Shown here piece by piece: positions 17,111 to 56,013 of a stretch of 64,000 nucleotides of DNA. Position 1 is the first letter of the stretch. The number at the start of each line of letters is the position of its first letter. The stretch spans positions 10,540,001-10,604,000 of the forward strand of contig OX597817.1 of the NCBI GenBank assembly GCA_951406725.2, read 5' to 3'. The notes beneath the pieces are model-generated. The model was not told where the DNA came from, did no database searches, and worked only from the letters and a program-made list of their open reading frames with translations. A program made the position numbers and the translations under genes. Origin of the DNA: Octopus vulgaris (taxonomy: Eukaryota).

Positions 17111-17498
17111 TTCTCAAGTAACCAGAAGATGGGTTTGGTATTAATCTTCATTTGCTACCAAGGTTGTTTCGACCCATCCTGCTACTAGCCCTTATGGGTA
17201 GGACCCCATTCACCATGTGCTGCATCTATTTTGCAGTCTGGGTCTCATCAGGTACATTCATACATGGGTCCCACGCTGGTTGGGGAAGGAAACATTGCTG
17301 CAATTTTCAATTAATATTATCTTTCTATAAGAATTACAAACATTTGTAAATATAAACAAATAACATTTTGATTAAAAGAAAAGAAAAAAATTCCCCAACA
17401 AAATTATATGTGTGTGTGTGTGTGTTTATTTTTACAATGTGTACAAATAACATGGAAAAACTAAATAAATAGTTACCAGAGTAGCAAAAAATTCACAT

Positions 17499-17893
17499 AG
17501 GCGCAGGAGTGGCTGTGTGGTAAGTAGCTTGTCTACCAACCACATGGTTCAGGGTTCAGTCCCACTGCGTGGCACCTTGGGCAAGTGTCTTCTACTATAG
17601 CTTCGGGCCGACCAAAGCCATATGAGTGGATTTGGTAGACGGAAACTGAAAGAAGCCCGTCGTATATATGTATATATATATATGTGTATGTGTGTTTGTG
17701 TGTCTGTGTTTGTCCCCCTAGCATTGCTTGACAACCGATGCTGGTGTGTTTATGTCCCCAGCAAAAGAGACCGATAAAATAAGTACTGGGCTTACAAAAG
17801 AATAAGTCCTGGGGTCGAGTTGCTCGATTAAAGGCGGTGCTCCAGCATGGCCGCAGTCAAATGACTGAAACAAGTAAAAGAGTAAAGAGTAAG
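17499..17893 (+). mobile_element. SINE family A
   Basis: Near full-length match to the family consensus seen in the window. Confidence 0.9.
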
Positions 17894-17962
17894 TACCAAG
17901 GATGTTACAGCCTACTTATAAAGGTAGAAATTCCAGGGTTTAGTGAAATGTCTTTGTATAAC

Positions 17963-18645
17963 AGATAAATAAAAAAAATGGAGTTAAACACGGGTGTTAT
18001 TCAAATCTTTATACTTCCAACATATGTTCCAAAGAAAACATTGGTATTATTCCAGAGGGAATAAAATTATGTAAAACATTGCAATCTTCTCATCAGGGAA
18101 AAAAAGGGAAACAAAACACATCAGTAAGCCATTTTAACCGAATGTGATTACTGCATATATGATGAAGGGAATACTGGCAAGTTATTTTTTTTTAAAAAAG
18201 ACGTTAATAGATTTAACGTCAAATGCAATTTAGAGAAAGAGAAGTAGGAGAAAGAAGGAAATTAACAGAAAACCAAGAGTGAAGAAATGTAGTGCGATAG
18301 ATGAATGGGAACCAGACCATCACACTACGTTTCTCCACTCTTGGTTTTCTGCTATTTTCTTTCTTTCTCCTCTTTCTCTTTCTCTAAATTGCATTTGATG
18401 TTAAATCTATTAACATTTTTTTTTTTAAATAACTTGTCAGCGTTCCCTTCATCATATATGCAGTAATCTCATTCGGTTAAAATGGCTTATTGTGTTTTGT
18501 TTCTCTTTTTTTTGCCTGATGAGATTACATTGTTTTACATCATTTTATTCCCTCCGGAATAATACCAACGTTTTCTTCGAAACATATGTCAGAAGTATAA
18601 AAATTTGAATAACACCTGTGTTTAACTCCATTTCTTTATTTATCT
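17963..18645. mobile_element. ~680-bp palindromic PLE-derived element with a hammerhead ribozyme motif in each arm
   Basis: Arms ~17963-18298 and ~18318-18645 are inverted copies. Right arm: CTGATGAG...CTTCGAAACATATGTC at ~18516-18590; mirror on the minus strand at ~18013-18100. Confidence 0.8.
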
Positions 18646-18759
18646 TTATCTATATATATATATAGTCAGTATTTCATATATCCCAAAAAGAAGCATACAC
18701 TAAAGCATTAAAATAGTAATAAGTTTTTTAGGAAGTTAAATGTTATGGTCAATCATATA

Positions 18760-18815
18760 GTGACCATCGGTTTTGCACTTATAAGTACTTAGCAGTATAA
18801 GTGGCTCATCAGATT
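18760..18815 (-). ncRNA. Degenerate type-I hammerhead ribozyme motif at the PLE 3' end
   Basis: CTGATGA-GCCACTTATA(loop)TATAAGTGC-AAAA-CC-GAT-GG-TC. GAAA appears as AAAA (CpG-type decay) and stem I pairs poorly. Confidence 0.6.
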
Positions 18816-19432
18816 CAAAAGGCCGCTAATGCATATTCTTTCTGCAACCAGAATAAGAAATATGTCACTGTCAGTTTTGTAAACAAAAGACATTAGTCTG
18901 TGCTGCAGGTGGAATAGGGTTATCACCCCTACATTGGCTCTGGCCATGGTCATATTTGAAGGAACTGCAGTGGACCTATTCAGCAAATGGGTAATTCAAA
19001 ATTTGTAGTATGTCAACTTTTAGATTAAGGCATTGACTAAATACATCTCTACTGGACTTTGTAAAGATTCCCAGGGCAAGCAAGTTTTTTTAGGATTCTT
19101 GCCCTCTCTGCCAAGCAAAGCTTACATCGTTTGCTCCCATTTTTATAGGTTCCTGGTTGTTCAAAGAACTTCCATTTAATTATGTATGGAGTTCTTTCCT
19201 CTTTTAAGTACCATACATGGATGGCCAGAGACATGATGTTGCACCTTTCCAGTATCCTAAAAGAAGACTTGTGTTTGTTGAAACATTGCTTAAATTGGGG
19301 TATGGTTGAACCAACATATTTTACTGTCTGTGCATTGGATATGCTACCACCACTTGTTTCTTTCATTAATTCCAGGTCTGATATTGTTGTTGTTGTTGCT
19401 GGAGTCAATAGCAGTGCTCATATTCCTGAACA

Positions 19433-19764
19433 TTAGTTAGTTAGTTAGTTAATTTTTTGGCTCAAAAAGCAAAAAGCAAGGCCATGTAGGGGGACATGGA
19501 GTTATGTACAGGGTGGTGTTCATGTAAAGAGTTCAGGCCACTTGTGGTCAAGGGAGATTTTGAACCGAGCGGTCGTCGGCATCTTCACTATCTCGTCTGG
19601 CAGCTTATTCCACGGATCCGCAACCCGGACGGAGAAAGCCCCTCTTCTTCGATTGAGATGAAATCGTCGCAGATAGAGCTTTTCAGAATGACCCTGCAGC
19701 CGACGCCTTGGAGCAGGAGTGAAGAACAGCTCTTTCGAGAGGTTACACTTTCCGCTTATGATGT
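19433..19764 (-). mobile_element. CR1-clade LINE 3' fragment inserted into the PLE
   Basis: High similarity to 53740-54068; (CTAA)n tail at 19433-19451. Confidence 0.88.
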
Positions 19765-20906
19765 GATTCTTATGGTTCTGTTGCCACTGGTGTAGCAGTC
19801 ATTTCTGCCTGCAAAGTTGGATTTGCTGTTGCAGTTGTAATGTTAGATGTGCAACTGAAAGATACCCTTAAGTTGTGCCTATTAAACAAATGTCCATATC
19901 TGTGTGACTGTGTGAAGTTTTCATCAATCAATCTAAGGAATATCCTTCCCTCACAGGTTTTAACATTGAAAGAGAAGGGAGGAAAAAACCAAGTGACATC
20001 ACAGTGGCACTTCCTTTTGCAGGTGCCAGGGGCCAGTATATAGGAGAGGCAATCCTTAAAGCCACTGGACACCAGAGCCTCATTGTAATAAAGGGCCATG
20101 ATGTTGAAAATTTCTTGACTTGAGGATAGGTTCATGATTCTCTTGCTGACACCCTTCACAAGGTTCCTGAACAGGAAGCTGTGTCGATGTAGGACAGCCT
20201 CTTGTTTGGTTTGTGGTAGGGTTTATAAGAACAGGATCTCAGATCTAATGTAACGTCTAAAAAAGTTTACAATGGTGAGGTTGGCCTTGATTGTTATCTT
20301 GAGCCCCATGGAGCTAAGGGCACTAATTAGATCCTTTCTAAGCTTGTCAAGGGTATGCCTGTTAGCTCTTCTAAAGATGGCCAGATTGTCATCTCTGTAG
20401 AGACCAAAGAGAACTGATGGAAACCTCTTTAAGTTGTTCGAAATATACAGTTCTATAAGGTCACAGATGCTCACCCTGTTGCGGGCTCCCATCACTACAT
20501 CAAAAGAGCCCACTGGGTCAGTTTGTGCCACCTAGGTCAACCCTTTATTAAACAGCAGTGTTTTTCTGGCATGTATAACTACATCAATGTCTCTATCACA
20601 TGTGTCAGTGAAGCCCCTAGCAAAAGTAAGTGCCCTTACCAACAGCCCTTTCAATACAGATGGGTAAACTTCTTCCCTGTAATGACACACACTGCACTCA
20701 TACACACTCACACACACACACACACACATACAGACATATATTTGTAGGCTCAAAATAAGTGATTTTATATGCATAAAAATAATGAACATTGTCTGAATAA
20801 ATAAGTCGATACAAATGTAGAATTTATGTGTGTGTGTGTGTATGTGTGTGTATATGTATGTATGTGTGTATATATATATGTGTGTGTATATATATATATA
20901 CATATT

Positions 20907-20971
<65 letters not shown>

Positions 20972-21608
20972 GTATCATACAGGCTTAGCTGACTAAGTGC
21001 TTGCTTCATATCCAATAGTATTCACCATTTATTGATTTAAAGATGAAGCAAAATGCTGTACAAATTATATGTAAAGTAATCACTGAAACCAGACAGAACC
21101 ATAATTGTTAGTATGATAAAGAAATGATTAGTTGCTTTGGAGAACAAGAATTTTGCTTTGAGGCTAAAAGACAGTCTTTGACATATCTTAAATATGAGAC
21201 ACTAATGGGTAAGTTTAGGAACATAGTCAAAACACTTCCTGATCAACAGTAAGTAGAATTACTGTTTGATAATTAAATGTGAGATAATTAAATCTGAGAT
21301 AATTAAATGCAAACATCTACAGTCTACTATTTCAAAGGTTTTAGGCTGAAATTGTACCATTTTGTGTGAAACTCAATTTAACCCTTTTCTTATCATTCTA
21401 TCTCAGTTGTGGTTTTTAACACAAATCTCATCATTGTAGGCTTCATGTTTAAATTAAAACCTTCAGTGCCAATAGAATAAGTACCAGGCTTAAAATTTAA
21501 GTACTGGGGGTCAATACATTCGACTATAAATTCCTCAAGGTGATGATCCAGCATGGCCACAGTCTAATGACTGAACCAAGTAAAAAATAAAATACAAAAG
21601 ATATATAT

Positions 21609-21771
21609 AGGCGCAGAAGTGGCTGTGTGGTAAGTAGCTTGTTTACTAACCACATGGTTCCGGGTTCAGTCCAACTACGTGGCACCTTGGGCAAATGCCT
21701 TCTACTATAGCCTCGATCCGATCAAAGCCTTGTGAGTGGATTTGGTAGACGGAAACTGAAAGAAGCCCGTC

Positions 21772-21825
<54 letters not shown>

Positions 21826-22035
21826 TTGTGTGTCTGTGTTTGTTCCCCTAGCATTGCTTGACAACGATGCTGGTGTGTTTATGTCCCCGTTACTTAGCGG
21901 TTCAGCAAAAGAGACCGATAGAATAAGTACTGGGCTTGCAAAAGAATAAGTCCCGGGGTCGAGTTGCTTGATTAAAGGCGGTGCTCCAGCATGGCCACAA
22001 TGAAATGACTGAAACAAGTAAAAGAGTAAATGAGT
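21609..22035 (+). mobile_element. SINE family A
   Basis: Full-length match to the family. Confidence 0.9.
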
Positions 22036-22044
22036 ATAAAAATT

Positions 22045-22567
22045 TACACTATCCTTCATCACTGACACCAATTTTAATGTAGGGTTCATGATACTTGTGG
22101 GGTTGGGGTGACCTTTCAGTATATAGGTGTTCTCATGGACATTTGTTCTTAAACCCTTTGTTATTGCCTTTAGGATTACAATGAGCCAATGACAGCTAGA
22201 TATAGTAGCCACTATAGCCAGCAGTCGTTGGCTTGAAGAAGTCCTTTGATAACATGTCTTACTCTTTAATCTAGCTGTTGCTAAGGAAACTAGGTATTGA
22301 TAAATGGCCTTTGAGTGCTGTGTGAGCTATGGACAGAGCTGTAGTTAACAAAATAATGAATTTAGTGATGAATTTAGCATGCTGGTAAGAGTCTTTCAGG
22401 GCTCAGTCATCAGCCACCTCCAGCTCATTGTAATCCTAAAGGCAATGATAAAGGGTTTAAGAACAAGTGTCCATGAGAACACCTATATACTGAAAGGTCA
22501 CCCCCACAACCCCACAAGTATCATGAACCTTACATTAAAATTGGTGTTAGTGATGAAGGATAGTGTA
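22045..22567. repeat. ~142-bp inverted repeat partly derived from an RTE RT fragment, ~236-bp spacer
   Basis: 22045-22186 is the reverse complement of 22423-22567. VRVFQGSVISHLQLIVILKAM resembles the RT motif GVxQGSVLSPLLF. Confidence 0.75.
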
Positions 22568-22575
22568 TGTATATA

Positions 22576-22971
22576 TCTATATATATAAAAGTGCGGTTGT
22601 GTGGTGTCTGTCTCCTACGATTTAGATTCCTAACTACTCCCACATTTTGTGGTGCAGTGTAACCAAAAGCGGGTATCTTATAGTCGTGATTCATATCGAG
22701 CCCTTCTGGGTATTAGCATGCATCTACGATGAGTCTACGATTTAAAAAAAAATTTACCATCATTTTTTCCCATTTTTAAAGCATTTCTTTACTATTATAT
22801 AAGGGAAGTAACTCTCTAAAAATGTATTATTAAATCTCAGAACGTAAAAAGCTACAGTAAAACCCCCCTTTGTGGTTAGCCATATTGAGATGGCTATTAT
22901 ACTTTACATCTCTAAAAATGCTTATATAATTATTTCCCTTACAAACCCAAGCAACTCCGGGGATACTGCTA

Positions 22972-22972
<1 letters not shown>
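22576..22972 (+). mobile_element. Non-autonomous Helitron, copy 1
   Basis: 5' TC, 3' CTAG, inserted between A and T, subterminal hairpin CCCAAGCAACTCCGGG; homologous to 50622 and 60290. Confidence 0.85.
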
Positions 22973-23008
<36 letters not shown>

Positions 23009-23029
23009 TATATATCTTTTGTATTTTAT

Positions 23030-23234
23030 TTTTTACTTGGTTCAGTCATTAGACTGTGGCCATGCTGGGTCACAACCTTGAGGAATTTATAGTCGAATGT
23101 ATTGACCCCAGTACTTTTTGTTTTAAGCCTGGTACTTATTCTATTGAAATCTTTTGCTTTACCACTAAGTTATGGGGACATAAACACACTAACACCGGTT
23201 TTCATGTGGTGGAAGGGGGACAAAACACACACAT

Positions 23235-23298
<64 letters not shown>

Positions 23299-23454
23299 GG
23301 CTTCTTTCAGTTTCCATCTGTCAAACCCACTCACAAGCCTTTGGTCGGACCGAGGCTATAGTAGAACGCAATTGCCCAAGGTGCAACACAGTAGGACTGA
23401 ACCCAGAACCATGTGGTTGGGAAGCAAACTTCTAGCCCCACAGCCACGTCTATG

Positions 23455-23458
<4 letters not shown>
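23030..23458 (-). mobile_element. Older SINE family A copy
   Basis: Diverged head, body and tail are still recognisable. Confidence 0.8.
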
Positions 23459-23493
<35 letters not shown>

Positions 23494-23591
23494 ATATAGC
23501 TTATATTATATATTAACATCATCGTTTAACGTCCGTTCTCCATGCTAGCATGGGTTGGACAGTTGACCGGGGACACACAAACACACATATA

Positions 23592-25215
23592 TATAACAAG
23601 ATATTCAGAAAGTAATTATGTTTTGCCAGAAAGGATATAAAAACCAATGTAAACTATGCTTATCTGAATACTTTTAATCAAGAATGTAATCACCATCATT
23701 TTCAACAACTGCAGCCCAACAGGAAAGTAATTTTCGTAGGCCACATTCAAAGACATTTATTTCTTTTCCTGAAAAAAAAAATCTGAAAGGCTGTTTTCAA
23801 CTTCCTCTCTGTTTCTGAATGTTTTGCCTATTATAAAATGTTCAAGTGATCAGAACAGATGGAAATCTGCAGGTGCTAAGTCAGGTGAGTATGGAGGATG
23901 TGGATGAACTACCCATCCTAATGATATTTTTTTTTTCAGGTTTGTTTTGAAGAGTGTGGCCATGTTGGAGAATAACACCTTTTACTGTTTTCCAAAGCTG
24001 GCCATTTTCAAGACTTAATTTTTCATTTACATGATCAAGGAGTGGCTGTGTGGCAAGTAGACATCTGCATTGATGGTCCTTCCATGTTCAGTCCTAGCTT
24101 GTAATGGATGATACCTTTTATGTTCCACCAAACACAGATCAAAGATGTTTGTGAGATGGAGTTCTGGTTTTGGTGTTGGTACTGCCTTCTCATTACATAA
24201 TAATCATTGTTCTTTTTTTTGTGTTTCTGTTGTCCCCCTGATGCTTGAACTCATGCTGGTGTGTTTACATCACCTGTAACTTAATGCACTGCAAAAATGA
24301 CAGGTTGTTATTCCTGGTTAGAGGACTACTGCAGATGGTGGAATGTCGTGTTCAGCTCTCAAGTGTAAGCTCATGTGGAACCTAAATTGGCAATAGACAT
24401 CTGCATGTTTTCCCAATTTGCTTGAAATGCTCATGGATAGTTTCATGTTCCACCAAACACAGAGCAAGGATTTTTATGGCTGAAGTTCAGGTTTTGGTGT
24501 TGGCATTGACCTCTCATTACATTGTCTTTTTCATTTTCTGTTGTGATTTAAAACCCATTTTTCATCACCTGTAGCAATGCACTACAGAAATGACAGGTTG
24601 TTATTCCTGGTTAGAAGACAGATGCAGATGGTGGAACATTGTGTTCAGTGCTCAAGTGTAAGCTCATGTGGAACCCCAATTCTTTCTTTGCGTGTTTTCC
24701 CAATTTGCTTGAGATGTTCATGGATAGTTGAACATGACATATTAAATTCTTATGCCAAATCTCTGGTGTTTTGATGTGGATCCGATACTATAATCTCATT
24801 CAAAAGGTCGTAATTCAAAGTGGGTCGTCATTCAGAGTGGGTCATCTTCCAGTGTGAGGCTTGTCAGATATGTCACAATCACCATCTTTAAACTTTTTAA
24901 ACCACAGCTGACATGCACAAGTTTCTTCACTGCATCCAGACACACTTCACAAATGTTTTTTAATTTGCCCTTCCAGTTGCCAATCCTTTTCTTTCAAAAT
25001 TCATGCAGTAAGCTAAGGCAAATATGTTGTCTGATAAAGTTCTTATCCTCCATTGGATTGATAACCAAAATAACTATGAATGATACACTGCTAGATAGAG
25101 GAGACGATATACTATTTCTAAACAGTACCTAACCATTTCAACCTTGGCTCTGATGTAATTGGTTGATTCATATTTTATAGTGGTGAAAAAATGCAATTAC
25201 TTTCTGAACACTCTA

Positions 25216-25217
<2 letters not shown>
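23592..25217 (-). mobile_element. Mariner transposon relic with internal duplications
   Basis: TIR-like ends (TTCAGAAAGTAATT at ~23603 / AATTACTTTCTGAA at ~25195). Minus-strand motifs VPHEL (~24665 and ~24375), IATGDEKWV (~24555-24580) and HPPYSPDLAPADFHLF (~23855-23905). Confidence 0.85.
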
Positions 25218-25257
<40 letters not shown>

Positions 25258-26009
25258 TGGCCAGATCAGTCTGGAACAGGATAACAAAAAGGAAAATCCC
25301 TGTGACCAAGTTGACCATATTGAGACCGTTGGGTCAAAAGAATTTTAGTGGAACTTAAAAATTTTTTAACAATCACAAATTTAAAACACAACTTCCAGAC
25401 ATTGGTGAGTTGTGATGAAAAACTATATTCAGTAGTGAAATAACTGCCATTCAACATCAATGTGGTTAGAAAATACAGAGAAAGGAACAGCTATAGACCA
25501 TTCATAAAGAATTTTTATATCTTGAATGTGCACTCATGATGTAATTTCAGCTTCATTCTTATTATTATTTAAGTGAACAGTTACATACCAACCTGCCAGG
25601 AGCAAAGTTTGGTTTGATATGCATATATATATATATATGTATATAAAAAACAAGTCAAGATAGAAAATGCTAAAATAATTTTATAAAGAACATTTCAGGG
25701 TTCCGGTCATTTTGAGACCTTTTCAACTTTAACGATTAAATACAAATTTAGAAAAATCAAAAGAAAAATTTTTTAAAAGAAGTATAGTGTTCAGATATAA
25801 GTGGCCTTTTTCTTGTTTCTGCCTTTCTCTGTCTCTCTTGTTTACACTTGTGGGTTCGAGGTTGTTGTATATATGTATATATGAATGTGTATATACAGTA
25901 GTACCTCACTTTTTGAACAACTCTGATCATGAAGAAATTGTGCTAGGGGCCATCCACCATGAACAGAGATTAATCTTCTCTCTTTGCTCCTTTGTGCCAC
26001 ATGGGCTCA

Positions 26010-26530
26010 ACTCTTCTGCACTGGTATGATAGGAAGACAGTTGCATCAAGAGGTGCCAGTTTCTAATTGAAGAAGGAATATGTTGAAGGGGTAGACCCAA
26101 GATGTAGGACAAAGTGGAGAGAAAGGATCTGCAGACATTGGGACTCACAGAGAGGATAATGACAGGGGATTGAGACTCCTGGCAGTTTGCTGTGCTTGAA
26201 AAACCACGTCAATCTAAGCAAATGTATGGGTGCTCTTGCATACAGGTTCATCCTCTGCAGCTCTCTCCGGCTGAGTATCCCTAACCTTGCAGGCTAGTGT
26301 CATGTAATGGAAGCACCTGTGTCAGTACTGCATAAAAGCACCCAGTACACTCTGTAAAGTGGTTGGTGTTAAGACAGGCATCCAGCTGTAGAAACCATGG
26401 CCAAAGCAGACATGGAGCCTGAACAGCCCTTCAGTCAGTCAGCTCCTGTCAAACCATCCAACCCATGCCAGCATGGGAAATGGACGATAAATGATGATGA
26501 TGGTGATGATGATGATAATGATGATGATGA
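26010..26530 (+). mobile_element. RTE LINE 3' end (ORF C-terminus, UTR, (GAT)n tail)
   Basis: LHWY...RGRPK..DKV..KDLQTLGL remnant, then CATCCAGCTGTAGAAACC...CCAACCCATGCCAGCATGG..GATGATGAT. Confidence 0.82.
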
Positions 26531-26535
26531 TATAT

Positions 26536-26608
<73 letters not shown>

Positions 26609-26732
26609 TACTTTCTTCATCACTGTCAAGATATACATGTGTGTGTGTGTGTGTATGTATGTATGCATGCATGCATGTATGTATGTATGTATGTATGTAT
26701 GTATATTTACATATTTATATATATATATATAT

Positions 26733-26776
<44 letters not shown>

Positions 26777-26823
26777 TATATAGACATACATCTATACGTA
26801 TATAAATATTTACATACATACAC

Positions 26824-26873
<50 letters not shown>

Positions 26874-26886
26874 ACATGTGTATATA

Positions 26887-27080
<194 letters not shown>

Positions 27081-27089
27081 CATATATAA

Positions 27090-28140
27090 ATTTTCTGGTG
27101 ATTTCCCAAGAAACGATAAATTACAGAACTCAATATGTAAACAATATATTCTTTAATACGTTACAACTGAAAAGCTGTAAATTGCTGTAAGTTCTCTGAG
27201 TTTCATATTTCCACCCATTCAGTTGGTAATCTGAGACTGTTTTCACTTAAATTATCTGATATTTTGAATGTATTTTGAAATATTATATGAAAGCTATCAA
27301 GAAAACGTTTATCTCCATATATACTTTTATAAATTATGCAAGACTTATATAATTTTACATTTTTACATTTCATTTATGGCTCTTGTGGGAATACACCAAA
27401 TGTCTCTTTTTTTCTTTTTCTTTTACTTAGCATTGCATTTGGAATTTAAACATCAAACGAAGAAGGTCACTTTAAGAACTGTTCTCTAATAGAATTCCGT
27501 TGTTATTTAAGAATTTTTTTAAAAACATTTTTCCGAAAACACTTCAAAATCAATGCTTTTTCTCTCTGAACCAAGTCAGAATTCTAGAAGGCTGATACTT
27601 ACACAGAAGATGCTTTTAACTTCATGCATACAAGGTGCTAATAATTCTGTTCTTTTGTTCAAACCATTACTTCCTTGAAACAAAATTCTTGATTTTTTTG
27701 ATCAAAGGTCACACCAGATTTTTGCTTTGAAGCTACCGTTCCTGACTGCTTACACCTTATCTACAATTGACCAGATAATTGAATTCTTGAAGACTTGCTA
27801 CATATAAGAACCATATCAATTTCAACAAAGCCATAGCACATTTTTGTTCAGGGCCAACAAATGGATGTTTGTCCCTATAAAATCGATTTTTTAATGCAAA
27901 TTCAGTTTCTTGAGGTTTGTCTCTGTTGCTGTTTCTTCTTTAATGTTGTATACAATCAATAATGCTTTACAGTTACCATCAAACGGGCAATTCTCCTGAA
28001 TACTGAAGTTGCATGATTGGTGTTCATCAACTATTCCCCTATCTGTTTCATTCAGACTTGCAGCATTTATACCTCTGATATAATAACCAAACTTTTCCCT
28101 AAATACTCCCTAAATAAGTAACCTTAATACAGTTCCAATT
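27090..28140 (-). mobile_element. Second, highly decayed PLE relic (GIY-YIG region, 3' end abutting (TA)n)
   Basis: SCNFSIQENCPFDGNCKALLIVY resembles the PLE CNC...CPLDGxC...IVY linker; hammerhead-like CTGAATGG..GAAACTCAGAG at ~27195-27222. Confidence 0.6.
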
Positions 28141-28437
28141 ACTCTCTTTTTACTCTCTTTTGCTTGTTTCACATCTTACTATATTTATACCTTTATTCTA
28201 TCAGGTCTCTTTTGGCAGAAAATGGTAATCTATCAAATTAAGGAATTCCTTAGTTGCGTTACTCTCTTTTACTCTAGTAGAAGACACTTGCCCAAGGTGC
28301 CATGCAGTGGGACTGAACCCGGAACCATGTGGTTGGTAAGCAAGCTACTTACCAGTACTATTTAATTAAATACTAAGCTAAACCATAGAATACATTTCTT
28401 TTTATTCCTGTTCCTTCACTGCATATTTTTAATACTT

Positions 28438-28476
<39 letters not shown>

Positions 28477-28504
28477 TTTATAATATATGCTTTATATATA
28501 TATA

Positions 28505-28730
28505 TGCTTTCAACATGTGATCTCTTGAGCACCACCAGCAAAAATATTTTTTCCTCTGTCTTCCCTTCTTGGGATCTTTCCTTCTCCTTGTTTCCGACGA
28601 AGAGCTCCGCTCGAAATGTTAAACCCTCCTTCCCTTCTTTCCTGAGCGTCAATAATACTTTAATTGTTCCACGTCCTCGCGTTGCTGTGTTTTTTTCTCT
28701 TTTTTTCTGTGTTTTCTTGTTTGGATTAAC
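28505..28730 (+). mobile_element. Short (TA)n-flanked element with a hammerhead-like motif
   Basis: GTTT-CCGACGA-A-GAGC-TCC-GCTC-GAAA-TGTT-AAAC at ~28590-28624; duplicated at 34665-34890. Confidence 0.6.
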
Positions 28731-28974
28731 TATATATATATATATATATATAATCTCATTGGAGAGTCTATTATATCTGTGTTTTATTATAGTACGTAAC
28801 TGCCTCCATAAAAACAGTCTCATAGGATGATCATGAGTGCACCCATTCATGGACATTTTCAACTAAGTTCTTCAAAATATTGAGTCAGTGATTTGATTGT
28901 TAAAATATGAACACTAATTTCTCACTTAATTTGTGGTATAGTCTGAAACTATTATTGCTTAATCTCAATACCAG

Positions 28975-29120
28975 AGGGCGCACACTCTCCTACCCTGATG
29001 TAATCTCCAGGGATACAGGCATCCAGTAACAGGACCTCCGTAATGCCATGATGGACCATGAAGTCTGGCATAGCATGGTAAATTCCATTGTCTCAACCAC
29101 GGTCGAACAATGATGATGAT
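28975..29120 (+). mobile_element. 3' end of a second RTE-type LINE
   Basis: LSYPDVISRDTG..DLRNAMMDHEVWHSMV then stop and (TGA)n tail; duplicate at ~35134-35279. Confidence 0.65.
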
Positions 29121-29686
29121 AATCTCAAGATCATGTCATATCAAGAAATTTAATAGTGATAAGATTAGTATCTATGATAAAACTATGTCCTATTTCCTCC
29201 ACTACTTTAAGCTTCAAACCATTGCAATCTCTCAATAGTTCTAGGCCATCATCACAATATAGAACACAATCAATTTATGAAGTTCTTTTTACAATAAATC
29301 TAGAATATAGAGCCCTGTAATTTTACTCACCCAAACACCATCTTATGCTCCTATAAATGCATCAAACAATTAATCCCCACGTTTGTTGACTCATGTTTTG
29401 TTATTGACAAAAAGGAGTGAGCTATTTGCATTCACAAACTCATCAATGTCCAACTCACAAGCATTTTTTATTTGTTTTTGGAAAATCTAGGGCCTTGATT
29501 GATCAAACAAAGGTTTGATTGTTAAAATATGAAAGTCTGCTACTTGAAATACATGAATTTACAAGTTTTCTCTTTTTTTCTCAAGAAACCTTTCCAGTAC
29601 TTCCAAAGTCTTGCACTGTAATATCAATGATGAACCTGCTTCTATTCAGAAAATGATCTTTCCAAATATTTTTTTGCAAACCATAT

Positions 29687-29858
29687 AGGCGCAGGAGTGG
29701 CTGTGTGGTAAGTAGCTTGCTAACCAACCACATGGTTCTGGGTTCAATCCCACTGCGTGGCATCTTGGGCAAGTGTCTTCTGCTATAGCTCCGGGCCGAC
29801 CAATGCCTTGTGAGTGGATTTGGTAGACGGAAACTGAAAGAAGCCTGTCGTATATATG

Positions 29859-29889
<31 letters not shown>

Positions 29890-30103
29890 TTGTGTCTGTG
29901 TTTGTCCCCCTAGCATTGCTTGACAACTGATGCTGGTGTGTTTACGTCCCCGTCACTTAGTGGTTTGGCAAAGGAGACCGATTAGAATAAGTACTGGGCT
30001 TACAAAGAATAAGTCCCGGGGTCGATTTGCTCGACTAAAGGCGGTGCTCCAGCATGGCCGCAGTCAACTGACTGAAACAAGTAAAAGAGTAAAAGAGTAA
30101 GAG
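29687..30103 (+). mobile_element. SINE family A
   Basis: Full-length; duplicated at 35843-36260. Confidence 0.9.
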
Positions 30104-30428
30104 TATATCTAAATTTAACATAGCTGAACTAATTTAGAGTCACTCTCAAGTTGAAGTTAAATTTATGGCTTTTAAATGTGTGTGTGTGTGTGCGTGTGTA
30201 TGTGGTGTGTGTGTGTGGTATGTGTGTACATATAATCATAGTTGGTTATTCCATTGGAAATGGAAGGAACCACAATTAAAGTAAGGTACTCATACATCAC
30301 ACAGATGGTATATTACTTTACTTAATAAGTGACTCTTACAGAACCAGTTTTGTAATCATCATCATCATCATCATCATTTAGCATCCGCTTTCCATGCTAG
30401 CATAGGTTGGACGGTTCAACTGGGGTCC

Positions 30429-30528
30429 NNNNNNNNNNNNNNNNNNNNNNNNNNNNNNNNNNNNNNNNNNNNNNNNNNNNNNNNNNNNNNNNNNNNNNNN
30501 NNNNNNNNNNNNNNNNNNNNNNNNNNNN
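30429..30528. other. Assembly gap (100 N)
   Basis: Run of N, the usual unknown-size scaffold gap. Confidence 0.99.
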
Positions 30529-31909
30529 AACATTATGTTCAGTGCTCAAGTGTAAGCTCATGTGGAACCCCAATTCTTTCTTTGCGTGTTTTCCCAATTT
30601 GCTTGAGATGTTCATGGATAGTTGAACATGACATATTAAATTCTTATGCCAAATCTCTGGTGTTTTGATGTGGATCCGATACTATAATCTCATTCAAAAG
30701 GTCGAAATTCAAAGTGGGTCGTCATTCAGAGTGGGTCATCTTCCAGAGTGAAGCTTGTCAGATATGTCACAATCACCATCTTTAAACCTTTTAAACCACA
30801 GCTGACATGCACAAGTTTCTTCACTGCATCCAGACACACTTCACAAATGTTTTTCATTTGCCCTTCCAGTTGCCAATCCTTTTCTTTCAAAATCCATGCA
30901 GTAAGCTATGGCAAATATGTTGTTTGATAAAGTTCTTATCCTCCATTGGATTGATAACCAAAATAACTATGAATGATACACTGCTAGATAGAGGAGATGA
31001 TATACTATTTCTAGACAGTACCTAACCATTCAACCTTGGTTCGGATGTAATTGGTTGTTTCATATTTTATAGTTGTGAAAAAATGCAATTACTTTCTGAA
31101 CACCCTAATATATGTGTGCGTGTGGTGGCCAGAACAGTCTGGAACAGAATAACAAAAAGGAAAATCCCTGTGGACCAAGTTGACCATATTGAGACCGTTG
31201 GGTCAAAAGAATTTTAGTGGAACTTAAAAATTTTTTAAATCACAAATTTAAAACACAACTGGCCAGACATTGTTGTGTAGGATCACAAAGAAAAACTATA
31301 TTCAGTAGTGGAAATAAGCTGCCCTCTCAACATCAATGTGGTTAGAAAAATACCAGAGAAAGAGAACAGCTATAGACCATTCATAAAGAATTTTCATATC
31401 TGGTACTCATGATGTAATTTCAGCTTCATTCTTATTATTATTGAAGCAACAGTATACATACCAACCTGCCAGGAGCAAAGTTTGGTTTGATATGCATATA
31501 TATATATATATATAAAAAACAAGTCAAGATAGAAAATGCTAAAATAATTTTATAAAGAACATTTCAGTACCGGTTCCGGTCATTTTGAGACCTTTTCAAC
31601 TTTAACGATTAAATAATTAAATTTAGAAAAATCAAAAGAAAAATTTTTTAAAAGAATATTTGTATAGTGTTCAGATATAAGTGGCCTTTTTCTTGTTTCT
31701 GCCTTTCTCTGTCTCTCTTGTTTACACTTGTGGGTTCGAGGTTGTTGTATATATGTATATATGAATGTGTATATACAGTAGTACCTCACTTTTTGAACAA
31801 CTCTGATCATGAAGAAATTGTGCTAGGGGCCATCCGGACTCCCGTCTTCACCATGAACAGAGATTAATCTTCTCTCTTTGCTCCTTTGTGCCACATGGGC
31901 TCAACTCTT

Positions 31910-32440
31910 CTGCACTGGTATGGCCATGTAATACATATGAATGAAGACAGTTGCATCAAGAGGTGCCAGTTTCTAATTGAAGAAGGAATATGTTGAAGGG
32001 GTAGACCCAAGATGTGGGACAAAGTGGTGAGAAAGGATCTGCAGACATTGGGACTCACAGAGAGGATGATGACAGGTGATTGAGATTCCCAGCAGTTTGC
32101 TATGCTTGAAAAAACCACGTCAAGCTAAGCAAATGTATGGGTGCTCTTGCATACAGGTTCATCCTCTGCAGCTCTCTCCGGCTGAGTATCCCTAATCTTG
32201 CAGGCTGGTGTCATATAAAAAGCACCTGTATCAGTGCTGCATAAAAGCACCCAGTACACTCTGTAAAGTGGTTGGTGTTAAGACAGGCATCCAGCTGTAG
32301 AAACCATGGCCAAAGCAGACATGGAGCCTGAACAGCCCTTCAGTCAGTCAGCACCTGTCAAACCATCCAACCCATGCCAGCATGGGAAATGGACGATAAA
32401 TGATGATGATGGTGATGATGATGATGATGATGATGATGAT
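31910..32440 (+). mobile_element. RTE LINE 3' end (duplicate of 26010-26530)
   Basis: LHWYGHVIHMNEDSCIKRC...RGRPKMWDKVVRKDL, followed by UTR and tail. Confidence 0.85.
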
Positions 32441-32473
32441 ATATACACACACACACACATATATATATATATA

Positions 32474-32515
<42 letters not shown>

Positions 32516-32622
32516 TACTTTCTTCATCACTGTCAAGATATACATGTGTGTGTGTGTGTGTATGTATGCATGCATGCATGCATGTATGTATGTATATATG
32601 TATGTATGTATGTATATTTACA

Positions 32623-32687
<65 letters not shown>

Positions 32688-32748
32688 TATATAGACATAC
32701 ATCTATACGTATATAAATATTTACATACATACACGTATATATATATAT

Positions 32749-32783
<35 letters not shown>

Positions 32784-32785
32784 AC

Positions 32786-32923
<138 letters not shown>

Positions 32924-32950
32924 GTACATATATATACATATATATATATA

Positions 32951-32989
<39 letters not shown>

Positions 32990-34109
32990 CATATATAAAT
33001 TTTCTGGTGATTTCCCAAGAAACGATAAATTACAGAACTCAATATGTAAACAATATATTCTTTAATACGTTACAACTGAAAAGCTGTAAATTGCTGTAAG
33101 TTCTCTGAGTTTCATATTTCCACCCATTCAGTTGGTAATCTGAGACTGTTTTCACTTAAATTATCTGATATTTTGAATGTATTTTGAAATATTATATGAA
33201 AGCTATCAAGAAAACGTTTATCTCCATATATACTTTTATAAATTATGCAAGACTTATATAATTTTACATTTTTACATTTCATTTATGGCTCTTGTGGGAA
33301 TACACCAAATGTCTCTTTTTTCTTTTTCTTTTACTTAGCATTGCATTTGGAATTTAAACATCAAACGAAGAAGGTCACTTTAAGAACTGTTCTCTAATAG
33401 AATTCCGTTGTTGTTTAAGAATTTTTTAAAAACATTTTTCCGAAAACACTTCAAAATCAATGCTTTTTCTCTCTGAACCAAGTCAGAATTCTAGAAGGCT
33501 GATACTTACACAGAAGATGCTTTTAACTTCATGCTTACAAGGTGCTAATAATTCTGTTCTTTTGTTCAAACCATTACCTCCTTGAAACAAAATTCTTGAT
33601 TTTTTTGATCAAAGGTCACACCAGATTTTTGCTTTGAAGCTACCGTTCCTGACTGCTTGCACCTTATCTACAATTGACCAGATAATTGAATTCTTGAAGA
33701 CTTGCTACATATAAGAACCATATCAATTTCAACAAAGCCATAGCACATTTTTGTTCAGGGCCAACAAATGGATGTTTGTCCCTATAAAATCGATTTTTAA
33801 TGCAAATTCAGTTTCTTGAGGTTTGTCTCTGTCGCTGTTTCTTCTTTAATGTTGTATACAATCAATAATGCCTTACAGTTACCATCAAGCAGGCAATTCT
33901 CCTGAATACTGAAGTTGCATGATTGGTGTTCATCAACTATTCCCCTATCTGTTTCATTCAGACATGCAGCATTTATACCTCTGATATAATAACCAAACTT
34001 TTTACTCCCTAAATAAGTAACCTTAATACAGTTCCAATAAAACATCTTACTATATTTATACCTCGGCAGAAAATGGTAATCTATCAAATTAAGGAATTCC
34101 TTAGTTGCA

Positions 34110-34335
34110 TTACTCTCTTTTACTCTCTTTTACTTGTTTCAGTCATTTGACTGCGGCCATGCTGGAGCACCGCCTTTAATCGAGCAACTCAACCCCGGGA
34201 CTTATTCTTTGTAAGCCCAGTACTTATTCTATCGGTCTCTTTTGCCGAACCGCTAGGTGACGGGGATGTAAACACACCACCATCGGTTGTCAAGCAATGC
34301 TAGGGACACAAACACAGACACACAAACATACACGC

Positions 34336-34366
<31 letters not shown>

Positions 34367-34512
34367 TACGACGGGCTTCTTTCAGTTTCCGTCTACCAAA
34401 TCCACTCACAAGGCTTTGGTTGGCCCGAGGCTATAGTAGAAGACACTTGCCCAAGGTGCCATGCAGTGGGACTGAACCCGGAACCATGTGGTTGGTAAGC
34501 AAGCTACTTACC
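34110..34512 (-). mobile_element. SINE family A (5'-truncated), intact only in duplication copy 2
   Basis: Family match; only scattered fragments occur at the equivalent site 28141-28352. Confidence 0.88.
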
Positions 34513-34596
34513 AGTACTATTTAATTAAATACTAAGCTAAACCATAGAATACATTTCTTTTTATTCCTGTTCCTTCACTGCATATTTTTAATACTT

Positions 34597-34635
<39 letters not shown>

Positions 34636-35842
34636 TTTATAATATATGCTTTATATATATATATGCTTTCAACATGTGATCTCTTGAGCACCACCAGCAA
34701 AAATATTTTTTCCTCTGTCTTCCCTTCTTGGGATCTTTCCTTCTCCTTGTTTCCGACGAAGAGCTCCGCTCGAAATGTTAAACCCTCCTTCCCTTCTTTC
34801 CTGAGCGTCAATAATACTTTAATTGTTCCACGTCCTCGCGTTGCTGTGTTTTTTTCTCTTTTTTTCTGTGTTTTCTTGTTTGGATTAACTATATATATAT
34901 ATATATATATAATCTCATTGGAGAGTCTATTATATCTGTGTTTTATTATAGTACGTAACTGCCTCCATAAAAACAGTCTCATAGGATGATCATGAGTGCA
35001 CCCATTCATGGACATTTTCAACTAAGTTCTTCAAAATATTGAGTCAGTGATTTGATTGTTAAAATATGAACACTAATTTCTCACTTAATTTGTGGTATAG
35101 TCTGAAACTATTATTGCTTAATCTCAATACCAGAGGGCGCACACTCTCCTACCCTGATGTAATCTCCAGGGATACAGGCATCCAGTAACAGGACCTCCGT
35201 AATGCCATGATGGACCATGAAGTCTGGCATAGCATGGTAAATTCCATTGTCTCAACCACGGTCGAACAATGATGATGATAATCTCAAGATCATGTCATAT
35301 CAAGAAATTTAATAGTGATAAGATTAGTATCTATGATAAAACTATGTCCTATTTCCTCCACTACTTTAAGCTTCAAACCATTGCAATCTCTCAATAGTTC
35401 TAGGCCATCATCACAATATAGAACACAATCAATTTATGAAGTTCTTTTTACAATAAATCTAGAATATAGAGCCCTGTAATTTTACTCACCCAAACACCAT
35501 CTTATGCTCCTATAAATGCATCAAACAATTAATCCCCACGTTTGTTGACTCATGTTTTGTTATTGACAAAAAGGAGTGAGCTATTTGCATTCACAAACTC
35601 ATCAATGTCCAACTCACAAGCATTTTTTATTTGTTTTTGGAAAATCTAGGGCCTTGATTGATCAAACAAAGGTTTGATTGTTAAAATATGAAAGTCTGCT
35701 ACTTGAAATACATGAATTTACAGTTTTCTCTTTTTTTCTCAAGAAACCTTTCCAGTACTTCCAAAGTCTTGCACTGTAATATCAATGATGAACCTGCTTC
35801 TATTCAGAAAATGATCTTTCCAAATATTTTTTGCAAACCATA

Positions 35843-36015
35843 TAGGCGCAGGAGTGGCTGTGTGGTAAGTAGCTTGCTAACCAACCACATGGTTCTGGGT
35901 TCAATCCCACTGCGTGGCATCTTGGGCAAGTGTCTTCTGCTATAGCTCCGGGCCGACCAATGCCTTGTGAGTGGATTTGGTAGACGGAAACTGAAAGAAG
36001 CCTGTCGTATATATG

Positions 36016-36046
<31 letters not shown>

Positions 36047-36260
36047 TTGTGTCTGTGTTTGTCCCCCTAGCATTGCTTGACAACTGATGCTGGTGTGTTT
36101 ACGTCCCCGTCACTTAGTGGTTTGGCAAAGGAGACCGATAGAATAAGTACTGGGCTTACAAAGAATAAGTCCCGGGGTCGATTTGCTCGACTAAAGGCGG
36201 TGCTCCAGCATGGCCGCAGTCAACTGACTGAAACAAGTAAAAGAGTAAAAGAGTAAAGAG
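35843..36260 (+). mobile_element. SINE family A
   Basis: Duplicate of 29687-30103. Confidence 0.9.
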
Positions 36261-36512
36261 TATATCTAAATTTAACATAGCTGAACTAATTTAGAGTCAC
36301 TCTCAAGTTGAAGTTAAATTTATGGCTTTTAAATGTGTGTGTGTGTGTGCGTGTGTATGTGGTGTGTGTGTGTGGTATGTGTGTACATATAATCATAGTT
36401 GGTTATTCCATTGGAAATGGAAGGAACCACAATTAAAGTAAGGTACTCATACATCACACAGATGGTATATTACTTTACTTAATAAGTGACTCTTACAGAA
36501 CCAGTTTTGTAA

Positions 36513-36918
36513 TCATCATCATCATCATCATCATTTAGCATCCGCTTTCCATGCTAGCATAGGTTGGACGGTTCAACTGGGGTCCGGGAAGCCAGAAGGC
36601 TGCACCAGGCTCCAATCTGATCTGGCAATGTTTCTACGGCTGGATGCCCTTCCTAACGCCAACCACTCCATGAGTGTAATGGGTGCTTTTTATGTGCCAC
36701 CAGCACAGGTGCCAGACGGGGCTGGCAAACGGCCACGAACGGATGGTGCTTTTTACGTGCCACCGGCACAGAAGCCAGGCGAGGCTAGCAAACGGCCACG
36801 ATCGGATGGTGCTTTTTACGTGCCACCGGCACGGGGGCCAGGCGAGGCTGGCAATGGCCATGGTCAGATGGTGCTTTTTACATGCCACCAGCATGGAGGC
36901 CAGTCAGGGCAGCGCTGG
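36513..36918 (-). mobile_element. RTE 3' UTR fragment with four ~62-63-bp repeat units
   Basis: GTGCTTTTTA unit at 36683, 36746, 36809 and 36871; (CAT)n at left end. Confidence 0.82.
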
Positions 36919-53533: not shown

Positions 53534-54068
53534 TTGAGACCCATATTGGAGTATGGGATTCAAGCCTCTTCTCCTTATCTCCTCAAAGACATACAGCATC
53601 TCGAAAGAGTCCAGAAGCTGGCTACCCGCATGGTTCATGGTCTCAAAAATTTGTCCTACGAAGAAAGGCTGAGGACGCTCGACCTTTATTCTCTTGAAAA
53701 ACGCCGCCGCCGTGGTGATCTCATTCTCGCCCACAACATCATAAGCGGAAAGTGTAACCTCTCGAAAGAGCTGTTCTTCACTCCTGCTCCAGAGCGTCGG
53801 CTGCGGGGTCATTCCGAAAAGCTCTACCTGCGACGATTTCATCTCAATCGAAGGAGAGGAGCTTTCTCCGTCCGGGTTGCGGATCCGTGGAACAAGCTGC
53901 CAGACGAGATGGTGAAGATGCCGACGACCGCTTTGTTCAAAGCCTCCCTGGACCTCAAGTGGCCTGAACTCTTTACATGAACACCACCCTGTACTTAACT
54001 CCATGTCCCCCTACATGGCCTTGCTATTTGCTTTTGAGCCAAATTAACTAACTAACTAACTAACTAAC
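53534..54068 (+). mobile_element. Young CR1-clade LINE 3' fragment (5'-truncated, open ORF2 C-terminus)
   Basis: RPILEYG...LERVQKLATRMV..L..LSYEERLRTLDLYSLEKRRRRGDLI...RGHSEKL...FSVRVADPWNKLP; (CTAA)n tail. Confidence 0.92.
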
Positions 54069-55874: not shown

Positions 55875-56013
55875 CATTATTTACATTTGACAGATATTTA
55901 TCCTCATCTTGTTTGTTGTTAACACAACGTTTCGGCTGATATACCCTCCAGCCTTCTTCAGGTATCTTAGGGAAATTTCGAACCTGGGTTCTCCTTCCTA
56001 AGGTATTTTTCGA

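Follow-up and report, generated by a model that had tools for sequence, protein, structure and literature searches.

Insertions of endonuclease-bearing Penelope-like elements (PLEs) are described as heavily 5′-truncated. Next to them stands an inverted copy, likewise truncated, one end carries a tail of 30-40 bp, and the targets are (TA)n; in such microsatellite targets target-site duplications (TSDs) are often not discernible (PMC8557442). Head-to-head inverted pLTRs of unequal lengths, one of them with a 31-bp tail, have also been reported (PMC3846280). In Anolis Poseidon the tail has been traced to two sites at which reverse transcription starts; the Anolis hammerhead needs protein in order to cut and is dispensable for insertion in vitro (PMC11167929). 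Metazoan PLE hammerheads have a palindromic stem III and low dimeric activity, and occur as opposite-strand pairs 100-700 bp apart (PMC4209133, Cervera and de la Pena 2014). PLEs insert beside earlier PLEs (PMC6765202), and animal retrozymes are defined as tandem repeats (PMC7229834; 10.64898/2026.07.22.740005). Cephalopod hammerheads are on record, since the giant squid genome has 235 Hammerhead_1 loci (PMC6962438).

We analysed a 64,000-nt stretch of the Octopus vulgaris genome (the window), in which positions 17963-18645 form a long inverted repeat. The palindrome probably consists of two 3′ ends, truncated at different points and placed head to head, from an abundant repeat family that bears a hammerhead, and its most likely source is one old PLE insertion whose mirror half was made during integration. 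It resembles endonuclease-PLE insertions in its 5′ truncation, inverted head-to-head partner, one-ended tail and (TA)n end, and perhaps in lacking a clear TSD (PMC8557442, PMC3846280), and differs from them in that this copy has no ORF and that its tail is only bounded (at least 28 bp, compared with 30-40 bp in PMC8557442). The architecture is thus already known for PLEs. The unusual part is the predicted 59-nt, three-helix stem II of the hammerhead, a modest variant. Coordinates are collected in Table 1.

Table 1. Features at and beside the palindrome, in window coordinates
Feature	Positions	Strand	Remarks
Family 3′ extension (tail)	17935-17962	-	Left arm only; 27/28 letters agree with loose-end consensus
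Left arm, 5′-truncated family 3′ end, 13 nt longer 5′ than right arm	17963-18311	-	
Decayed left-arm hammerhead	18014-18101	-	Core 18096-18090; lesions C11.1, A13, C17
7-nt junction filler, locus-specific	18312-18318		Unlike either arm or upstream family consensus
Right arm, 5′-truncated family 3′ end, without tail	18319-18645	+	Arm alignment and family contigs
Decayed right-arm hammerhead	18511-18595	+	Core 18516-18522; GAAA 18579-18582; lesions 18514, stem II 5′ strand, 18591
Long stem II domain, predicted	18523-18578	+	5-bp outer helix, 6-bp middle helix, 7-bp terminal hairpin; family-majority fold
TATC/(TA)n tract	18646-18664		Likely target site; common to neighbouring PLE's 3′ end
Decayed PLE of the Hydra clade, different family	18665-20700 (limits approximate)	-	RT and GIY-YIG remnants; tail-to-tail with right arm

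Arms, borders and centre of the palindrome

The predicted palindromic arms are borne out. Aligned to one another (17963-18298 against 18319-18645), they are identical in 293 of 326 columns (89.9%), with 11 gap columns. There are 33 mismatches, of which 23 are transitions and 12 lie in a CpG context; a thirteenth flagged CpG site falls in the unpaired centre. The JC distance between the arms is 0.109, or about 0.054 per arm. On a scale where 0.065 corresponds to 18 My (PMC13282606) this would loosely suggest an insertion age of roughly 15 My, a figure that CpG decay inflates.

To see the family beyond this locus, we used contigs of four public runs that match 18299-18900, the right arm with its flank, at 80% likeness. 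The DNA runs X1, X5 and X9, each from a different organism, gave 2,420, 2,808 and 2,671 contigs, counts that include the neighbouring element and the TA tract. The fourth run (X17, 213 contigs) is RNA by guess only and is not counted as evidence of transcription; strand, RNA ends and expression level are not readable from contigs. The listings behind what follows cover 40 of 82 substitutions, 15 of 43 joints and 24 of 1,069 loose ends; the others may conceal core variation or more joints.

The contigs move both borders of the left arm. The 13 letters at 18299-18311 are the last 13 of the loose-end consensus before 18319 (17 contigs in X5, one in X17), which corrects the inner border from 18298 to 18311 and leaves a filler of 7 nt. 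Outward, family letters reach at least to 17935: over 17935-17962 the sequence agrees in 27 of 28 letters with the loose-end consensus behind 18645 (29, 39 and 29 contigs in X1, X5 and X9), so the left arm has the family tail and the right arm is without it. The tail is at least 28 bp long, its outer border not being fixed. Behind 18643, 42, 51 and 41 contigs enter AT-repeat-like sequence (agreement 0.49-0.54). Contigs from two organisms (A and C) cross 18616-18900, with 0 and 2 substitutions respectively, and so confirm the right junction as real.

No direct repeat of at least 6 bp is shared by 17880-17965 and 18640-18700, and the right end sits in (TA)n. The 350-380 nt present at the palindrome hold no ORF of 120 aa or more. 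Long inverted arms, an absent ORF and a TA-rich right flank would also suit a foldback or MITE-type DNA transposon that had captured a PLE hammerhead within its long inverted repeats. We hold this to be highly improbable in view of the unequal ends with their one-sided tail, the locus-specific centre, the 3′-biased coverage (below) and the missing TSD; strand-switch joints at other positions (below) already hint that copies differ in their centres.

The hammerhead motif and its predicted fold

The motif strings quoted for the two arms in the original prediction (for example CTGATGA, GAAA and CATATG) read as given. The right arm retains the core, GAAA and C17, together with a palindromic stem III (18582-18589) and a GUC site at C18590; the cut site lies 55 nt from the right-arm end, near the 3′ end. 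It has three lesions: stem I is unpaired at its position 2.2 (18514), 3 nt are deleted from the 5′ strand of stem II, and G1.1 has become A (18591, CpG). The left arm has three others: T stands at C11.1 and at C17 (both CpG), and G at A13. Its 5′ strands of stem I and stem II are both intact. The two arms are therefore damaged at different positions, several of them CpG (G1.1, C11.1 and C17), as had been claimed.

Both single arms fail a scan for type-I hammerheads. Among 4,096 mosaics of the arms 128 pass, all with the same five arm choices. In a column-shuffle control a strict mosaic match arose in 1 of 20,000 shuffles and a loose match in 5 of 5,000. The spacer from core to GAAA in the left arm is 59 nt, so a 5-bp stem encloses 49 nt, close to the insert of about 50 nt that had been proposed.

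Family contigs point to the same reconstruction. At 18591 the majority letter in the three DNA runs is G (79, 94 and 91% of depth), which restores GUC followed by GGAA. At 18569 all four runs have T at about 99% of depth, and this T pairs in the middle helix of stem II. The loose-end consensus before 18522 (X1, X5 and X9) has the left-arm letters for the 5′ strands of stem I and stem II, and that before 18528 (X1 and X9) likewise. Wherever a damaged right-arm position was checked, the mosaic predicted from the arms thus has the commonest letter of the family, with stem I, stem II and G1.1 restored, and the joint reconstruction of a type-I hammerhead stands. The core check proposed earlier (CUGAUGA, GAAA and GUC) came out in its favour: the motif is present in the family, and the core, GAAA and stem III show no change among the 40 of 82 substitutions listed. 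Per-site family frequencies, as listed, and the two arms contain no compensatory pair in the stems. Two arms of one insertion can in this way recover an ancestral RNA motif.

In the terminal hairpin of stem II, two polymorphisms are listed (18552 and 18555, the latter a CpG site); both fall in the loop (18550-18555), and none falls in the 7-bp stem among the rows listed.

An Rfam search, also proposed earlier, gave no hammerhead. There were 0 hits in the window at the gathering threshold and 31 matches at E<=10, nearly all to hairpin-type families, all under gathering scores and none to a hammerhead; the null result is uninformative about the intact motif, because both arms are damaged and the intact motif was not what the search probed. 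A strict hammerhead pattern matched the window once against 1.12 matches expected, which is chance level, and a strict stem-checked scan of the 64 kb gave zero matches. Metagenome matches to the core with the stem II and III motif (four loci) were rejected as chance: stems I and II are absent on inspection, and agreement with the element ends at the 16-17 letter pattern.

Could the whole be an assembly artefact or a chance motif? The window has one N-gap (30429-30528) between near-identical duplicated blocks, and Rfam is silent on a hammerhead. This explanation is already refuted by the 10% difference between the arms with its transition and CpG bias, by the spanning contigs of two organisms and by the shuffle level.

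The family hammerhead shares with type-I hammerheads of metazoan PLEs the CUGAUGA/GAAA core, the G10.1-C11.1 pair, a short stem I, a small palindromic stem III fit for dimerisation and a location near the 3′ end (PMC4209133; PMC8557442 File S2). It differs in stem II. The 59-nt spacer is predicted to form three helices. PMC4209133 gives helices of 7-8 bp; in PMC8557442 the loops of the Hydra list are 3-10 nt long and the core descriptor has a spacer of 7-17 nt. Unlike the metazoan PLE hammerheads compared (PMC4209133, PMC8557442), it needs no extra nucleotide between A9 and 10.1. PLE-X1_sMoe of Selaginella also has distant core halves, with a 9-bp stem II and a 35-nt loop (PMC8557442 Files S1 and S2), but it is an endonuclease-less element of a plant and its loop is unmodelled.

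We folded a family-majority model, that is, the right arm with family letters. Its MFE has a z-score of -3.5 against 300 shuffles. Stem I has 5 bp with pair probabilities of 0.78-0.99 and six more pairs past a bulge. Stem II is predicted to form three helices (5, 6 and 7 bp) whose pair probabilities are at most 0.52, the value for the outer helix, and the hammerhead-constrained fold lies 2.2 kcal/mol above the MFE. Stem III has an energy of +2.4 kcal/mol as a hairpin compared with -7.0 as an 8-bp intermolecular duplex, and its monomeric pair probability is 0.01. These modelled energetics fit a dimeric hammerhead.

The genomic copy behaves differently in the models. A read-through RNA of the palindrome folds at -422 (plus) or -437 (minus) kcal/mol, with 308 or 316 arm-to-arm pairs and no unpaired base in the core; on either strand, transcription reaches the antisense arm before the sense arm. 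Self-cleavage from either strand, as had been claimed, is unlikely because the predicted read-through hairpin of more than 300 bp pairs the core; both arms are moreover lesioned, and the copy is likely inactive on both strands.

The same results bear on the suggestion that the palindrome itself is a retrozyme-like unit that cleaves itself from either strand. Although each arm and strand carries one hammerhead and the family's commonest letters restore the motif, we think this very unlikely: in addition to the three lesions per arm, the early antisense arm and the predicted fold, the centre is single-copy and a tandem array is absent. No head-to-tail array was found in 17300-19500, so the palindrome is not a tandem retrozyme. 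Other signs of a retrozyme are missing as well: the window has no second copy, and of the joints listed (15 of 43) none returns at unit length. Animal non-LTR retrozymes are alike in being non-coding, AT-rich, about 350 nt long and PLE-related, with a type-I hammerhead; they differ in forming head-to-tail tandems that lead to circular RNA, whereas here there is one head-to-head pair and a strongly 3′-biased family (PMC7229834; 10.64898/2026.07.22.740005).

The repeat family and the origin of the insertion

Depth in the DNA runs is 177,000-281,000 at 18593-18634, 18,000-35,000 at 18362-18403 and about 2e3 at 18320-18340. Family depth therefore drops 10- to 100-fold toward the 5′ end, a gradient that fits strong 5′ truncation across the family and to which the damaged right-arm reference, and families that perhaps share only the 3′ end, also contribute. 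Summed 3′-end depth is 3,000-5,000 times that of the contigs spanning the locus. Summed contig depth is a rough measure and no copy number, so that the thousands of copies it suggests for the family are an inferred figure.

The palindrome is real, but the contigs do not support the part of the original prediction that made it a mobile unit. In the centre bin (18299-18319) depth is 21-48 in the DNA runs, compared with 55-58 for locus-spanning contigs, which is single-copy level. Upstream of 18319, at least 17 X5 contigs run on into family sequence, of which 30 letters are visible, and the family likewise extends upstream of the left arm. Strand-switch joints also occur elsewhere (18346/18530, 18429/18523 and 18442/18532, one contig each, among the 15 of 43 joints listed).

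We observed the family with its restored motif letters, arms of unequal length, a filler, a tail on one side only and an end in (TA)n, and the architecture and the family letters support the proposed PLE origin with its type-I hammerhead and palindromic stem III. The assignment to PLEs rests on architecture and ribozyme, because no RT or EN ORF is linked to the family.

We propose that a PLE enzyme would have cut an AT-rich or (TA)n site and that reverse transcription would have started from both of the sites by which the tail is defined, as for Anolis Poseidon (PMC11167929). Synthesis would have halted after about 330-380 nt, and the two truncated copies would have been joined in inverted orientation. 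In the parent RNA the predicted hammerhead would have had 5 bp in stem I, with more pairs beyond a bulge, a stem II of 59 nt in three helices and a self-complementary stem III of 8 nt; to cut at GUC it would likely have needed to dimerise or to have help from protein. The genomic copy would later have decayed by about 5% per arm.

A parent of another kind could give the same insertion architecture, namely a short ORF-less non-autonomous PLE derivative, whose unit would exceed about 380 nt and which PLEs of the Hydra or Neptune type would move in trans. We judge such a parent unlikely, yet well ahead of the alternatives above. The 350-380 nt present are without coding sequence, the family is highly abundant, and the (TA)n site is common to the palindrome and a PLE of the Hydra clade; non-autonomous elements derived from pLTRs have been proposed (10.64898/2026.07.22.740005), and pLTRs suffice in trans (PMC3846280). 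However, depth falls steadily 5′-ward with no common start among the loose ends listed (24 of 1,069), the X5 contigs continue upstream, and the neighbouring PLE has no significant DNA match. Insertions of autonomous PLEs are mostly 5′-truncated anyway (10.64898/2026.07.22.740005). The family may nevertheless be an ORF-less parasite of other PLEs.

Returning to the insertion of a truncated PLE, we compared the family with described octopus elements. The 3′ ends of Naiad_Obim, Naiad_Ovul and Hydra-1_Obim all differ from it by eye. In the Naiad/Chlamys/Hydra supplement (PMC8557442), seven of eight short probes from the element are absent and the eighth lies in unrelated coding sequence, although FASTA line breaks may hide probes; a ninth probe of 9 letters has four matches there, with unrelated flanks. 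On the strength of these probe results and the 3′-end mismatch we rejected a place for the family among the octopus "half-core" Naiads. None of four probes matches the supplement of the O. vulgaris repeat paper, a supplement that is without library sequences. Among the papers listed in our literature search none gives an account of the family or of a cephalopod hammerhead with a long stem II; Repbase, Dfam, the octopus repeat library and supplements of published papers may already contain either.

In eight "HHR_half_core" Naiads, two of them cephalopod, the core halves lie 35-50 nt apart, a wide spacing as in the family, and these cases were not modelled as ribozymes (PMC8557442). Some "half-core" PLEs may hold overlooked ribozymes, since short-spacer descriptors cannot see a long stem II. 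Tentatively, and with less than even confidence, we suggest that the octopus family is a very abundant animal PLE family whose 59-nt, three-helix stem II hammerhead would work and would be invisible to short-spacer descriptors, and that hammerhead-less or "half-core" PLEs, including cephalopod Naiads, may hide long-stem-II ribozymes. The palindrome itself is probably an ordinary PLE integration product, and the ribozyme variant is the useful part. Should the family motif prove to cut, current counts of hammerheads in animal retroelements would be underestimates, owing to the limit that search descriptors set on the stem II spacer, and it would become possible to test directly whether some PLE clades lack hammerheads.

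Neighbouring elements in the window

The right-hand neighbour of the palindrome, beyond the (TA)n, is a decayed minus-strand PLE whose translation has remnants of RT and GIY-YIG. It is near the Hydra-1_Obim protein of Octopus bimaculoides (compared by eye), and an assignment to Neptune was dropped for Hydra after this comparison. GIY-YIG clusters at 0.95 for this element in the atlas; Pfam gave 0 families for both of its two fragments. Its DNA has no significant match to the arms.

The neighbour has a short hammerhead of its own (about 18757-18816, minus strand, 18812), in which A replaces G12. That different hammerhead and the lack of a significant DNA match rule out the family as the neighbour's 3′ end. 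Positions 18758 and 18768 of the neighbour's hammerhead are changed in 73-89% of family-contig depth in the DNA runs, and with the change at 18768 its stem III reads like that of Hydra-1_Obim.

A 332-bp fragment (19433-19764), which we take to be a LINE-like 3′ fragment, splits the neighbouring PLE between RT and endonuclease and is 93.7% identical to 53736-54063. Left of the palindrome, a repeat of about 400 bp (17495-17894), presumably a SINE, has 12 long matches elsewhere in the window and ends about 40 bp from the visible end of the left tail.

The N-gap is flanked by near-identical duplicated blocks (24635-36585). Within them, 28272-30428 and 34431-36585 are 99.8% identical, possibly as an assembly overlap. 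Other hammerhead-like cores with a short stem II occur at 55961 (minus) and at 28595 and 34754 (plus), the latter two in the duplicated block, and are probably ends of further PLE families.
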